Assembly (NCBI GenBank): GCA_017427945.1
Contig: JAFRRT010000021.1
Coordinates: 2,259 to 66,258, forward strand
Origin: Muribaculaceae bacterium
GTDB taxonomy: Bacteria > Bacteroidota > Bacteroidia > Bacteroidales > Muribaculaceae
DNA length: 64,000 nucleotides
Reading direction: 5' to 3'
The notes below the pieces were generated by a model. The model was not told where the DNA came from. It saw nothing but the letters and a program-made list of their open reading frames with translations, and did no database searches. The translations under genes and the position numbers were made by a program. Within the stretch, counting starts at the first letter, position 1; each line of letters starts with the position of its first letter. Of the stretch, positions 49,285-57,503 are shown piece after piece.

Positions 49285-49362
49285 AAACAACTGAACATTC
49301 TGATAACTCTGATTTCGTCCCATCGGATATAGAATCAGAAAACTCAGATTGTTCAGTTGTTT
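49285..49362. repeat. REP-like hairpin, a divergent relative of the 80-bp repeats at 55955 and 57393
   Basis: AAACAACTGAAC...GTTCAGTTGTTT 12-bp stem; the first 32 nt match the 55955 copy at 27 positions. Confidence 0.75.
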
Positions 49363-50749: not shown

Positions 50750-53620
50750 TTAATCTCTGTTTCCTTTTGACAGCAGCATGTCGATGAGCGCTGTCACGTC
50801 GGCGATGCTCACAGTCTCATCACCGTTCACGTCGGCGCAAATCGAGCAATAATCAGCCGCACCCAACAGGTAATCAATCAATGCCGTCACGTCGGCAATG
50901 CTTACGTTGCTGTCATGATTCACGTCGCCCACTACATGAGGCGGCATGTTCTCGATGAGGTAAACTTCCTGCTTGTTGCTCCACGCGCTCTCGGTGCCGT
51001 CAATGTACTGGGCTTTCACTTTATATACAAAGTTGCCGCCAGCCATCAGGTCCCTCACGACATAAGACTTGCCGGTGATGCCGGTAATGAGCCTATAGGT
51101 GTCATCGCCGGTCTCGAAAGGCGAGGTGAGATCCAGGGCAGTCAGGTCGCCAGCATAAATCGTGATCATCTTGACGCTGGTATAGTTCTCGAGAGATGTG
51201 ATGGTAACCGCATCGGCATCGGCACAATCCAGCACAACAGTGTATTGTGACATGGAATCGTCCAATGTCAAGTCTTGGCTGTCAACACTCGTCGATACCC
51301 TAATGGAAGAATTGCTGTAGTAATAGGAAGCCGTCCTGATAACCACGGTCATCTTGTCATAGCCGGAGAGGGAATACACCGGTGACTTGATGGTGCCATC
51401 ATAAGCAAGCAGAATCGCATTGTTGTAAGCTCCCATATAAGAGGTACCTTTCCATCCATCGGGCAGATAATCCTGATAGTTGTCCGAGATGTCAATCAGG
51501 CCGTTTCCGTCTTCAGAGAGAGCATCGGGCACGTTGCTGAAGTCGGCGGTCTCCAATAGTTCAACGGTTGGCTTGGTCATTACCTCAAGGGTGTAGCTGG
51601 CGACATTATCGGCGGGAGTCATGTCGGTCCAGTCGGCACGGAACTGCGTCAAGTGGACGTAATTATAGTCGGCGGGCTCCATCACGGGAGTGTAAGTCAA
51701 CAGCGCACCACGGCCTGTCAGGTTTACCACAACATCCTGTGCACCGGGGCTGCTCAGCGTCAAGGTGCCGCTATAGTTCTGCAGGGCCGTCGGCTCTAAG
51801 GTCACTGTCACTGTCATACCGGTAGCGGCATCGTTGGCGCTGATGACCGTAGGATTGACGGTAAACACGCCATTGGGGTCGTTGACTGTGAGCGTCACAT
51901 TTCCCGTCAAGGCGCCACCCATCACGTTAAAGGTTGCCGAACCAGTGGTAGTGAGCATCACGTCGCCCAGGTCGAGGTCGTTAGTCGAAACCGAGATAAC
52001 GGGATTGGTTGCCGATCCCTTCATGTACCAGAAACTGGCGGTGCCGTCGGCATTGATGACCATCTCGGTGATGGGCTTGCCCAGGTAACCGGCATTGCTC
52101 ACAATGCTGCCGTTAGCCCTCATGTGAAGTTTGGCAGCAGGCGTGGAATTGTCGGTAAACTCGGTCTTGCCATTCTGAGGCCACAAGTCGGTACTCTCGT
52201 CGTAATAAGACCACGAGTTGTCGGCATTCATGAGGGTCATCAACTGGATGTCTTCATTATTGGGCGTGTTGCCCCACCAGCGGTCCTGGTTATAGGTGAC
52301 ATGGGTAATCATGATGCCCGAGCCGGGGGCATAGCGGTCCCAACCCTGCTTCCTGCGGTTCTCGACGATGAAGAACTCGTTCTGGTTCAGGTTGCTTGTG
52401 AGGCACAGAGCCTTGTCGGTAGCTGCCTGCTTCTGGTTAAACACGGGCAGTGTGTAGTAGGTGCCGGGCATAGGAGTGATGTAATCGATCCATCCCATGA
52501 AATGCTTCTCGTAGGCCGAATAACCCGGCGGCGTATAGCCGTCATTGTTGTAACAACCCAGGCACATGATGTCCCAGTCACCCAAACCGTAATGGCCGCC
52601 GTCACCCGTATCATAGAAGTCGGGCAGACCCAGGCAATGGCCGAACTCGTGGCAGAAGGTGCCGATACCGTCAATCGTCGAGGTATTGTCATTGCTGCCG
52701 TGCAGCTCATTAAAGACGGCAAACATGTCAACCAACGGGTCTCCCGAGTTGGGACGGAAGGCACCGTTGCCACCCATGCCATAGTAAGAGGCCGAGCTGA
52801 GGTACCAGTTGCAGGGCCAAACAGCCTCGGGGTGCTCATAATAGGCCTGGGCCTCCCCCACGCCTGCATAGATGACGATGACCACGTCGCAGTAGTCGTC
52901 ATTGTTGGTGTCATAAGGCCTGAACGTCACGCCGTCGGCTGCCGCCAACTGGCAGGCTTCGGTCACCAGATATCCCAGTCCCTTGTCATTATTGTTGCCT
53001 TGATGCCCACCGTAATACACACGGTTTTGGCTCAAGGTATAGATGCCATAGACATCAAAATCGGGCTGATATAAACCATTGGACTGGTCGCGGAAGTACT
53101 GGCCCACGCTCTCGTTGCCGGTGAGCATGGCATCGATGATGCCTTGAGGCGTGTTGTTGAACTTCTTGTCCTTAAACTCCACCAGGATGATGGGAATTTT
53201 GCGGGAGCCGTTGGCGGGAACGCCCGATTCATCGTTGCTGCCACCAATGCCCAACATCGTGCCGCTACGCTTCGGACGCTTCCATTGCCACTGCTTGGCC
53301 GGGACTGGCATCGTCAAGCTGCCGCGCTGGGCCTCGATGAATGCCGTCTCGGCAGCGGTACGCTGGTTGGTCTCGTGGGCACGCACGGCGGTGACACCCG
53401 TCAGCGACGAGTTGTAATAGTAATCGCCGTCAGCGCCACGCACCACCATCAGGCCATCCTGCGTGAGAATCGCACTGTTAAAGGCATTACCCACAGCATG
53501 AATCTTCAGGGTGGTGCCATCACTCTGGTTCACAGTGATCCAACCCGGCTTTGCGGGCACAGCCATAGCGGCTATACCGCAACAAAGCACAGCAAAAAGA
53601 AGTAAAATGGATTTCTTCAT
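50750..53620 (-). CDS. Secreted M6 (immune inhibitor A-type) metalloprotease with Ig/FN3-like modules and a C-terminal dockerin-like domain
   Basis: GIGTFCHEFGHCLGLPDFYDT, WDIMCLG and YSAYEK motifs; GDVNHDSNVSIADVT / ADVNGDETVSIADVT. ATG 53620 chosen as start. Confidence 0.92.
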   Translation of the reverse strand: MKKSILLLFAVLCCGIAAMAVPAKPGWITVNQSDGTTLKIHAVGNAFNSAILTQDGLMVVRGADGDYYYNSSLTGVTAVRAHETNQRTAAETAFIEAQRGSLTMPVPAKQWQWKRPKRSGTMLGIGGSNDESGVPANGSRKIPIILVEFKDKKFNNTPQGIIDAMLTGNESVGQYFRDQSNGLYQPDFDVYGIYTLSQNRVYYGGHQGNNNDKGLGYLVTEACQLAAADGVTFRPYDTNNDDYCDVVIVIYAGVGEAQAYYEHPEAVWPCNWYLSSASYYGMGGNGAFRPNSGDPLVDMFAVFNELHGSNDNTSTIDGIGTFCHEFGHCLGLPDFYDTGDGGHYGLGDWDIMCLGCYNNDGYTPPGYSAYEKHFMGWIDYITPMPGTYYTLPVFNQKQAATDKALCLTSNLNQNEFFIVENRRKQGWDRYAPGSGIMITHVTYNQDRWWGNTPNNEDIQLMTLMNADNSWSYYDESTDLWPQNGKTEFTDNSTPAAKLHMRANGSIVSNAGYLGKPITEMVINADGTASFWYMKGSATNPVISVSTNDLDLGDVMLTTTGSATFNVMGGALTGNVTLTVNDPNGVFTVNPTVISANDAATGMTVTVTLEPTALQNYSGTLTLSSPGAQDVVVNLTGRGALLTYTPVMEPADYNYVHLTQFRADWTDMTPADNVASYTLEVMTKPTVELLETADFSNVPDALSEDGNGLIDISDNYQDYLPDGWKGTSYMGAYNNAILLAYDGTIKSPVYSLSGYDKMTVVIRTASYYYSNSSIRVSTSVDSQDLTLDDSMSQYTVVLDCADADAVTITSLENYTSVKMITIYAGDLTALDLTSPFETGDDTYRLITGITGKSYVVRDLMAGGNFVYKVKAQYIDGTESAWSNKQEVYLIENMPPHVVGDVNHDSNVSIADVTALIDYLLGAADYCSICADVNGDETVSIADVTALIDMLLSKGNRD

Positions 53621-53799
53621 AAAACTTATAATGTATTGATAGTTAATAATGATTACTCTATAACATTTGGTACACGCAAAATTATATCTAATAATCCACC
53701 TATCCAAATTTTTGAAGATTATCGTATGTCCGAAAACTATAAAAGTGAAAACAATTCACTACCTTTGCGTTTTGATAATAACCTTTTCAACCTTTACAC

Positions 53800-55194: not shown

Positions 55195-55938
55195 ATGCTA
55201 TTAAATCCAAAATATCAGCATCTGAAAGAGTGGCTGGAACGGCTGCCCGAAGATTTCGAGCAGTTAGGCGAGGTCATTTATGACAAGCGTAACCAGTTGC
55301 GTGTCATCGAGGCCCCCGACGGCACCCTCGTCAATGCCAAGCGCTACTGCAAGACGCATCTGGTGAACCGTGTGGTCTATTCGCTTGGCATCCGTCAACC
55401 TAAAGGGCTACGCGCCTTTCTCTACCCCACCCGCCTGCTCGAGCGCGGCATCAGCACCCCCGAGCCCATCGCCTATATCGAACAGCGCCAATGTGGACTG
55501 CTGGGATTGAGTTACTTCATCAGCGTGCAGTCGCCGCTGAGCCACACGCTCTATGAGTTCGGCGACGCCCAGGAGGGCACCTATGAGGAGATGGCGCACG
55601 AACTGGGACGCTTTACCGCCATGATGCACAACAACGAGGTCCTGCACCTCGACTACTCCCCAGGCAACATCCTGTGGGACAAAGACGGTGACGGCTACCA
55701 CTTTGCCGTGGTGGACATCAACCGCATGCGTTTCGGCACAGTGGACATCAAGGACGGCTGTGCTGCCCTGCGTCGCCTGTGGGGCCCAAAACGATTCATC
55801 GAACTCATTGCCCGCAGCTATGCCGCCGCCCGAGGCTTCGACGAGGACGAGGCCGTCCGCCTCACCATGGAGGCCCGCACCACCTTTTGGACCCGCTACC
55901 AACGCCGCCACCCCGTCGACTTCCCCCTCGAAATCTAA
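55195..55938 (+). CDS. Lipopolysaccharide kinase (Kdo/WaaP) family protein
   Basis: KRNQLR, TPEPIAYIE, LHLDYSPGNIL and VDINRM motifs. Confidence 0.85.
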   Translation: MLLNPKYQHLKEWLERLPEDFEQLGEVIYDKRNQLRVIEAPDGTLVNAKRYCKTHLVNRVVYSLGIRQPKGLRAFLYPTRLLERGISTPEPIAYIEQRQCGLLGLSYFISVQSPLSHTLYEFGDAQEGTYEEMAHELGRFTAMMHNNEVLHLDYSPGNILWDKDGDGYHFAVVDINRMRFGTVDIKDGCAALRRLWGPKRFIELIARSYAAARGFDEDEAVRLTMEARTTFWTRYQRRHPVDFPLEI

Positions 55939-55954
55939 TTCTTTCAAACAACTG

Positions 55955-56034
55955 AAACAACTGAGGTTTCTGATAAATCTGGTTTCAGACCATTCAGAAG
56001 CCTCAGTTGTTTTATTAAGTGCGGATGCCTAAAT
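55955..56034 (+). repeat. 80-bp direct repeat, copy 1 (hairpin-forming)
   Basis: AAACAACTGAGG...CCTCAGTTGTTT stem plus tail ATTAAGTGCGGATGCCTAAAT; identical to 57393-57472. Confidence 0.95.
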
Positions 56035-56049
56035 CCGTAAAATTAAGAC

Positions 56050-56140
56050 TGCAATCATAAAAATAACAACAAAAACTAAGTTTATAATCACAAAAAGTGG
56101 CTAAAAAATTATGATTGTAATCACAATTTATATATCTTTG
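56050..56140 (+). promoter_or_regulatory. Three 11-bp motifs phased at 33 bp plus a -7 box (TATCTTTG, 56133)
   Basis: TGCAATCATAA (56050), TATAATCACAA (56083), TGTAATCACAA (56116). Confidence 0.55.
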
Positions 56141-56160
56141 CGGCAAAAATATTGACAGTT

Positions 56161-57354
56161 ATGCAAAGATTAATCCATACTTATAACAGGCTTTTGGCTA
56201 ATGTTGATGAAACGTTTATACGTTATTTATACCCTCTGATTGACTGGAATAACCGCCTCATCGTTATCAAAGGGGCTCGAGGTGTGGGCAAAACAACCAT
56301 GCTACTTCAACATATCAAAAAGGCTTTTCCTGATGTGAAGAAAGCGCTCTATGCTTCACTTGACAACATCTGGTTTACGACCAATACTCTCATCGATTTG
56401 GCCGAATACCACTATACACACGGCGGCACTCATTTGTTCCTTGACGAAATCCATCGTTATCAGGGGTGGCAACGGGAAATCAAGAACATCTATGACTCCT
56501 ACCCTGACCTACATGTTGTCATCACTGGTTCCTCACTCTTGAAGCTGGAGGAATCCATTATTGCCGATCTGTCAAGAAGGCATCGGCAATACACGCTTAA
56601 CGGCATGTCTTTTCGTGAATATCTGCAACTTGAAGATGTTGCATCACTACCGCCGCTCTCCCTTCAGGACATTTTAGACAAACATGTCGAGATTGCAGTT
56701 CAAATCACATCAAAGACCAAAGTGCTACAGCATTTCGAAGAATATGTACATCATGGCTTCTATCCTTTCTACCGAGAAGATGAAGAAGGCTTTGAAGACC
56801 GTCTGCAACAAATCATTGATACCATCATCGAGAGCGAGATTCCTGCTGTGAGCGATATTAAGTATGATTCGGTGTATAAGGCTAAACGGCTTTTAGGAAT
56901 CCTTGCTCAGCAGTCACCCTATACGCTCAACATCGCTGCATTAAGCAACACTTTACAAGTCTCACGAGAAAATGTACTCAAATTGCTTGACTTGATGGAC
57001 AAATCGGCACTTGTGAGGAAACTATACTCTCATTCGGGTGGCATGAAGATGCTTGTCAAACCAGAAAAAATCCTCTTCGACAATTCCAATATCATGTTCG
57101 CCTTGAGCAATCATGCCGATGCGGGTACTATGCGCGAAACCCTGTTTGCTTCACAACTGAACGTTGGGCATCAACTCTACATGCCACAACAAGGAGACTT
57201 TGTAGTAGATGATGCTTTTACCTTCGAAGTCGGAGGGCGTGGCAAAGGCTACAAACAAATCCGGAACTTGGAGAACAGCTATGTTGTCCAAGACGAGATA
57301 GAGCTGGGCATTGACAACAAGATTCCTCTCTGGCTTTTTGGATGCCTCTACTAA
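56161..57354 (+). CDS. AAA_14 ATPase + DUF4143 domain protein
   Basis: Walker A GARGVGKT, Walker B LFLDEIH, ITGSS, GFYPFY, RETLF and FEVGG motifs; AT-richer codon usage than the flanks. Confidence 0.9.
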   Translation: MQRLIHTYNRLLANVDETFIRYLYPLIDWNNRLIVIKGARGVGKTTMLLQHIKKAFPDVKKALYASLDNIWFTTNTLIDLAEYHYTHGGTHLFLDEIHRYQGWQREIKNIYDSYPDLHVVITGSSLLKLEESIIADLSRRHRQYTLNGMSFREYLQLEDVASLPPLSLQDILDKHVEIAVQITSKTKVLQHFEEYVHHGFYPFYREDEEGFEDRLQQIIDTIIESEIPAVSDIKYDSVYKAKRLLGILAQQSPYTLNIAALSNTLQVSRENVLKLLDLMDKSALVRKLYSHSGGMKMLVKPEKILFDNSNIMFALSNHADAGTMRETLFASQLNVGHQLYMPQQGDFVVDDAFTFEVGGRGKGYKQIRNLENSYVVQDEIELGIDNKIPLWLFGCLY

Positions 57355-57392
57355 TTCTATTACCTGACATTATCGACAACCTATTATCATTA

Positions 57393-57472
57393 AAACAACT
57401 GAGGTTTCTGATAAATCTGGTTTCAGACCATTCAGAAGCCTCAGTTGTTTTATTAAGTGCGGATGCCTAAAT
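57393..57472 (+). repeat. 80-bp direct repeat, copy 2
   Basis: Base-for-base identical to 55955-56034. Confidence 0.95.
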
Positions 57473-57503
57473 TCGTATAATTAGCGAAATTCGTAGTTTC
57501 GAA

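Follow-up and report, generated by a model that had tools for sequence, protein, structure and literature searches.

The locus described here, a single gene between two copies of a hairpin-forming direct repeat, has its closest described counterparts in several kinds of system. In Campbell-type insertion, and in insertion-duplication by homology-facilitated illegitimate recombination (HFIR), an insert likewise comes to be bracketed by a direct duplication of the native target, with one homologous junction and one novel joint at a microhomology; in Escherichia coli conjugation with a single homology arm, the outcome was mostly a duplication of 109–950 bp of the homologous locus, by way of a circularised molecule and a single crossover (PMC3240628). 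Integron cassettes offer the same order of folded imperfect palindrome, single gene and folded palindrome, in a unit that here measures ∼1.4 kb. Finally, the enclosed gene resembles PDC-S01, a group of AAA_14 plus DUF4143 (COG1373-type) ATPases that has been reported to be the commonest single defence locus among rumen genomes (PMC13356809). Our locus lies in a 64,000-nt stretch of Muribaculaceae DNA (contig JAFRRT010000021.1), which we call the window and in whose positions all coordinates are given, its own genome being G000. We find that the repeat is probably the scar of an ordinary, recombination-driven insertion that combined one homologous crossover with one microhomology joint. The observation is real and the mechanism ordinary, and the locus does not represent a novel type of cassette system.

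The repeat pair itself is as first described. Positions 55955–56034 and 57393–57472 are identical at 80/80 positions, form direct repeats 1438 bp apart from start to start, and enclose one AT-rich gene. The further similarity of ∼11 bp with two mismatches, claimed in the original prediction, was confirmed: over the full repeats (55955–56045 and 57393–57483) 89/91 positions are identical, with both mismatches within the final 11 nt. The window contains exactly two occurrences of the 58-nt hairpin core, where shuffled sequences predict 0, and among the G000 genes of at least 250 aa (n = 1367), only 0.66% of which reach a bracketing score of at least 25 as a background, the repeat in the window is the highest-scoring bracketing repeat. 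It folds very stably, both as single-stranded DNA and as RNA; the RNA fold (−45.3 kcal/mol, z = −10) consists of a 21-bp stem and a small 4-bp inner stem, so that the terminal stem of 12 bp proposed earlier was too short. The tail of the repeat forms a second small hairpin, and the opposite strand of the main hairpin likewise ends in a T-run. A search of Rfam returned nothing above the gathering score, only chance matches to miRNA-like hairpins. The two copies and their pair of end mismatches recur in four independent metagenome assemblies that are 99.76–100% identical over 6–9 kb, one of them a k = 141 contig whose k exceeds the repeat length; this agreement makes an assembly artefact very unlikely. 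The features on which the argument turns are, from left to right:

55195..55938, + strand: Kdo/WaaP-like kinase gene, the left flank (Pfam PF06293, E = 3.4e-8)
55953..56014, no strand assigned: hairpin itself (21-bp stem enclosing a 4-bp inner stem), then TTTTATT (from the fold)
55955..56045, + strand: left repeat copy, its left side colinear with the native spacer next to the kinase gene, its right edge meeting the start of the insert at an AATTA microhomology
56038..56129, + strand: three to four palindrome-like boxes of the TGATTGCAATCA type at 33-bp spacing, upstream of the ATPase gene
56046..57392, + strand: inserted segment proper (1347 bp) between the repeat copies, with boxes, promoter, ATPase gene and a 38-nt 3′ untranslated region (UTR)
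56133..56140, + strand: −7 promoter box of the Bacteroidetes type, TATCTTTG (TAnnTTTG), read from the sequence
56161..57354, + strand: AAA_14/DUF4143 ATPase gene, 397 aa (Pfam, PADLOC, alignment A2)
57393..57483, + strand: right repeat copy, the ancestral one, running on into the native spacer and the amylase stop codon
57504..58910, − strand: alpha-amylase family gene, the right flank (Pfam PF00128), 468 aa in public assemblies

The earlier claim that the enclosed gene is an inserted unit is supported by relatives. In 9 of the 10 same-genus genomes with a kinase ortholog (76–87% amino acid identity; amylase orthologs, 89–92%), the kinase and amylase genes are convergent and directly adjacent, with no ATPase gene between them, and the species closest by kinase identity (G028, G022, and G011) are empty at this site. 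The spacers of the empty-type relatives measure 82–246 bp, with one of 639 bp, and carry different hairpins; among 60 relatives, the closest ATPase homolog reaches only 49% identity. The arrangement kinase, single repeat, amylase, which had been suggested as something to look for, is present in G083, another member of the genus: its kinase gene is followed by one hairpin, 91% identical to that of the window, by the start of the tail and by the amylase gene, with no ATPase gene between, and an 80% identical ATPase homolog sits beyond the amylase gene, on its far side. The L077/G083 metagenome-assembled genome was grouped in the genus of the window genome, and its kinase and amylase are 86–92% identical to those of the window. 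When the repeats are aligned with the G083 spacer (alignment A1), colinearity of the left copy starts at the kinase stop codon and runs through hairpin and tail, and that of the right copy extends from the hairpin as far as the amylase stop codon. In addition, the junction between the 3′ UTR of the ATPase gene and the hairpin is common to the window and allele L065. Because of this colinearity and this common junction, we regard the right copy as ancestral and the left copy as a recent duplicate, the latter meeting the start of the inserted module at the AATTA microhomology, where both mismatches cluster. Judged from these sequences, and from the fact that hairpin and tail each belong to a dispersed repeat family described below, the repeat is a duplicated native target sequence and not a part carried by the ATPase gene.

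Sister alleles place the window in a series of differently scarred loci. Public contigs hold ATPases of 80–90% identity in the same kinase-amylase neighbourhood; a scan of metagenome contigs gave one relative, L076, and a scan of genome contigs gave eight, of which only L077 is close. In L065 (ATPase 89% identical), the bracketing repeat is 43 nt long and copies the amylase 3′ end with 93% identity, and the hairpin is single, 3′ of the ATPase gene. In L076 (84%), the direct repeat is taken from the amylase 3′ end and measures 316 nt (96.2% identity), and the order of elements is kinase, spacer, truncated amylase remnant, 64-nt kinase 3′ fragment, ATPase, PDDEXK_4, and amylase. The kinase fragment, which lies next to the module, is 89.7% identical to the resident kinase gene, and the whole structure looks as if an occupied-type segment, together with its own flank, had been joined to the remnant of an empty-type allele. 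No bracketing repeat is present in L067, and in L063 and L077 the module occupies a second position (position 2), between the amylase 5′ end and an M20 peptidase gene, again without a duplication. As the arrangements of L065, L076, and L067 differ in this way, the constant element is a homologous right side, and the left joint changes from allele to allele. The grouping of L063 is in conflict between genes, its kinase going with L067/L068 (86% nucleotide identity) and its ATPase with the window (84.6% versus 76.6%). Exchange of the module through flank homology, in which the right side is homologous and the left joint is made anew, duplicating whatever lay right of the module, appears to describe this series. 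The ends of the insert were also sought in diverged paralog pairs, where homology stops at the stop codon and 12–140 nt upstream; at 75–85% identity, these limits are uninformative. In several sister alleles, a PDDEXK_4 gene lies 40–55 nt after the ATPase gene (L063:4239–5519, L068:4248–5510, and L076) and matches the PADLOC candidate PDC-S26 (E = 1.4e-77); ATPase and PDDEXK_4 genes may form a two-gene unit, or they may be two candidates stacked at one hotspot.

From these comparisons we infer an order of events, a form of the donor DNA (circular or linear) and an agent, the general recombination of the host. The target of the insertion would have been a stable hairpin and its tail between the convergent kinase and amylase genes. 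The ATPase module, made up of operator boxes, promoter and gene, would have been tied for a long time to the kinase-amylase-M20 neighbourhood of the genus and swapped among lineages via homology in the conserved flanks. An empty spacer of the form a-hairpin-tail-b, with a and b its two native sides, would then have gained the module from a near-identical donor in which the module stood just left of the hairpin. One of the two joins would be a homologous crossover inside the hairpin-tail segment or the amylase gene, and the other an illegitimate joint at the AATTA microhomology, from the tail to the start of the module. Equivalently, a fragment with module and hairpin-tail could have closed into a circle and entered by a single Campbell-type crossover; in both cases, hairpin and tail would end up on either side of the module. 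The two 80-bp copies could later recombine, deleting the gene and leaving one hairpin, and no such allele was seen.

Insertion-duplication calls for a single copy native to the target, which the G083 spacer provides in alignment A1, and for duplications of variable length with co-imported donor flank. Such variation is seen in L065 (43 nt), the window (91 nt), and L076 (316 nt, together with the kinase 3′ fragment), compared with 109–950 bp in E. coli (PMC3240628). Our case differs from the E. coli experiments in being a natural event in a rumen Bacteroidales bacterium, in its shorter homology (80–91 nt), and in concerning a defence-candidate gene at an apparent recurrent hotspot.

Several points weigh against a recombination scar. 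No empty allele was found among eight conspecific contigs; all eight contigs with the exact kinase (8/8) and all five with the exact amylase (5/5) carry the present arrangement. Look-ups of the identical ATPase protein likewise yielded this arrangement alone. Nor was a donor allele found, that is, a module beside a single identical hairpin. For recombination of the RecA type, a homology of 80–91 nt is short. The model also accounts neither for the first arrival of the module at the locus nor for its position 2 beyond the amylase gene. Moreover, bracketing is enriched sixfold around the ATPase family relative to neighbour genes, and a purely general process explains this enrichment only if the ATPase genes turn over unusually fast.

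Among the other explanations, we consider an origin in situ unlikely. Here, a tandem duplication of module and hairpin-tail (1438 bp, with the joint at AATTA) would have been followed by deletion of the first gene copy, or two old hairpin copies would have been homogenised by gene conversion. In its favour, the level of nucleotide divergence among the alleles is similar for the ATPase gene (75–85%) and the kinase gene (78–86%), which makes the ATPase an old resident of the locus, and each edge shows a short homology (AAACAAC at the left one, AATTA at the right one). However, two steps are needed, of which the deletion would have to restore exactly the native contiguity of side a and hairpin seen in G083. 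The nearest species by kinase (G028, G022, and G011) are empty, and the structure of L076, with copies diverged to 89.7% and 96.2%, fits import better.

A different question is whether the ATPase itself could have played a part, and its family bears on this. PDC-S01 owes its status as a candidate system to enrichment in defence islands, and we know of no description of how PDC-S01 genes move. The protein in the window matches AAA_14 (PF13173) with 110.7 bits against a cut-off of 27 (E = 6.5e-32), and in PADLOC it matches the PDC-S01 model PDLC04789 (E = 3.3e-33) and six further PDC-S01 models. The suggestion of a plausible defence gene is therefore borne out as membership of a defence-candidate family: by these profile matches, the gene is a candidate member of PDC-S01, a single-gene family proposed to act against phages. 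As points in common with PDC-S01, it has the hidden Markov model and AAA_14 matches and is a single gene with its own promoter; it differs in that its subfamily has FEVGGxxK where (D/E)xK is expected and in that its DUF4143 (PF13635) match, at 22.1 bits, falls under the Pfam cut-off of 28.1. The Walker A motif reads GARGVGKT. The original prediction took FEVGG as a PD-(D/E)xK-like remnant; instead, E326, D346, E356, and K362 (RET...GDFxVD...FEVGGxxK), an E...D...E-x5-K set, are invariant in alignment A2, which holds 19 homologs down to 47% identity. This invariance makes the nuclease-like site a conserved variant rather than a remnant. DUF4143 has been classed in the PD-(D/E)xK superfamily (PMC3424549). 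A sequence search of the PDB with the ATPase gave no match, and with an AlphaFold2 model of moderate quality (pLDDT 67), Foldseek retrieved nothing more specific than generic AAA+ folds, among them those of clamp loaders, DnaA, and Orc1/Cdc6. G000 holds one copy of this ATPase subfamily.

The gene had further been described as AT-richer than its flanks and equipped with its own promoter, and both statements hold. Its GC content is 43.7%, compared with ∼59% for both flanking genes, and it is preceded by a box of the TAnnTTTG type, the motif established for Bacteroides promoters. This TATCTTTG box sits 20 nt ahead of the ATG at 56161 and recurs in the homologous alleles. The TGATTGCAATCA-type boxes upstream of it are kept in all related alleles (L063, L065, L067, and L077), and the array probably represents operators, likely autoregulatory ones. 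In L166, a more distant homolog, the gene is flanked on either side by a box array of another kind.

Bracketing by direct repeats is also found beyond this locus. The genome-wide search for other repeat-flanked genes that had been recommended was successful in G000, where eight other genes are bracketed by imperfect direct repeats of 34–62 nt (C6:233477, C28:27459, C30:20090, C18:60958, C38:8885, C11:42280, C5:44802, and C28:32148); several of these repeats look like the ends of neighbouring genes. The genes so bracketed include hydrolases, a muramidase, a metallo-beta-lactamase-fold gene of 35% GC, an ATPase_2 gene, and a Phage_CRI replication gene, and because genes of unrelated function are bracketed alike, we argue for a general process. 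In an unselected survey of 100 homolog loci (L121–L220) from 300 Bacteroidales genomes, with bracketing defined as a score of at least 25, 10/98 ATPase homologs were bracketed compared with 5/287 neighbour genes (∼10% versus 1.7%; Fisher p = 7e-4). The repeats around the homologs are 36–190 nt long and unrelated in sequence. They lie 28–291 nt upstream and 47–293 nt downstream of the gene, distances that vary too widely for fixed ends. At L143, the repeat is partly a dispersed element of ∼107 nt, and the relative G438 is without the gene. At a weaker threshold, three of the seven control positives are themselves AAA_14-type ATPases (L158, which is among the five, and the weaker L159 and L205). 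The other bracketed neighbours include an AbiEii-like nucleotidyltransferase gene, and a further one is enclosed by two copies of the 3′ end of a superoxide dismutase gene.

The enrichment may reflect a fast turnover of these accessory genes; an active role of the ATPase in its own insertion is a less likely source. Under the latter explanation, the AAA_14/DUF4143 protein would drive insertion of its own gene with long, variable target duplications, which could come about through widely staggered cuts or through stimulated recombination near the operator boxes. The survey counts speak for it (10/98 against 5/287), as do the AAA_14-type ATPases among the controls (L158, L159, and L205), the invariance of the nuclease-like residues, and the presence of a box array on both sides of the gene in L166. 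On the other hand, the distances between repeat and gene are not fixed, no terminal inverted repeats were found at the insert, L076 carries co-imported donor flank, the position-2 alleles lack a duplication, and gene types unrelated to the ATPase are bracketed alike in G000; we also know of no precedent for duplications of 40–300 bp made by a nuclease-ATPase. Self-driven insertion at this locus is therefore doubtful in our view. Its extension to the family, in which PDC-S01 genes would be selfish single-gene elements whose box-bound ATPase-nuclease promotes insertion or excision of its gene and so makes the long, variable duplications around ∼10% of family members across Bacteroidales, is likewise improbable. 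A classical transposon or insertion sequence was rejected, given that the insert ends carry no inverted repeats, the ATPase gene is the sole gene, and the duplication length is 43–316 nt.

The original prediction had compared the locus with attC cassettes, with the folded hairpin travelling with the gene and being used by a recombinase acting in trans. The comparison draws on the hairpin-gene-hairpin layout with its perfect identity, on the very stable single-stranded fold, and on L030, a locus in another genome of the genus, which shows the same layout with a different hairpin. It fails on the origin of the hairpin, which is native to the empty site of G083 and hence derived from the target, and on the sister alleles, which are bracketed by amylase coding sequence or by nothing. 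G000 has no integron integrase, the best TIGR02249 score being 71.8 bits against a cut-off of 265, with only generic tyrosine recombinases present. The R″ and R′ boxes of attC sites follow the consensus RYYYAAC and GTTRRRY; the repeat has AAACAAC and GTTGTTT in their place, so that only the AAC and GTT triplets fit. Extrahelical bases are likewise missing from the stem, which is continuous as RNA and has one symmetric internal mismatch (T/G) in the DNA fold. With a target-derived site, neither IntI nor R″/R′ boxes nor extrahelical bases, no array or attI, and a gene that has its own promoter, the locus is unlike an integron cassette at each of these points; what was taken for a folded recombination site is a duplicated native target, and the attC-like model is largely refuted, with very little probability left to it.

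The hairpin has relatives of its own in G000, in which it belongs to a family of ∼11 dispersed AACAACTGA...TCAGTTGTT hairpins, probably species-typical terminators or REP-like (repetitive extragenic palindromic) elements. Members carry ...TCTGA.../...TCAGA... heptads between the AACAACTGA and TCAGTTGTT stems, usually followed by a T-run, and are found at window positions 49286–49361 and on G000 contigs C8, C13, C18, C25 (two copies), C28, C36, and C39; some have CGCTAAGGCGCTAAG-type repeats ahead of them. The tail (GTGCGGATGCCTAAATTCGTATAATTAGCGAAATTCG..., window 57452–57500) is an intergenic element of ∼45 nt of which genomes throughout the genus each carry many copies, with 85–93% identity and sometimes in tandem arrays (e.g., G116:C8 and G132:C5). 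As both hairpin and tail come from dispersed families, two independent insertions of REP-like or miniature inverted-repeat elements might be imagined, or else an assembly error, but neither is credible, because the other hairpin family members are only ∼75% identical and the bracketing pair matches at 80/80 positions with a common tail, each copy is colinear with one native side, and four assemblies are concordant, one of them at k = 141.

Hairpin and tail together are probably the native, bidirectional terminator of the convergent kinase and amylase genes, to judge by a stable stem-loop, T-runs on both strands, and a position between convergent genes in G083; at the window locus, no terminator was called by a simple consensus scan. 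Intrinsic bidirectional terminators and REP-like hairpins share with it the long G+C-containing stem, the T-runs on both strands, the convergent-gene spacer and, here, a family of ∼11 copies; unlike in ordinary cases, one member and its tail are duplicated around an inserted gene. Elsewhere in the window, a gene at 50750–53707 on the − strand encodes a large secreted M6 (immune inhibitor A-like) peptidase with a C-terminal dockerin domain, a domain that is unusual outside cellulosome-forming Firmicutes.

As a recombination scar, the locus provides a clean, reconstructed example of a one-gene module swapped via flank homology, with the duplicated target left behind, and it comes with a comparison set of one empty-type relative and three sister alleles that are scarred differently. 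It also cautions that a hairpin-gene-hairpin layout need not mean an integron-like cassette. The one aspect worth follow-up is the family-wide enrichment of such scars: if the sixfold enrichment holds, PDC-S01 genes either turn over unusually fast or help their own insertion.

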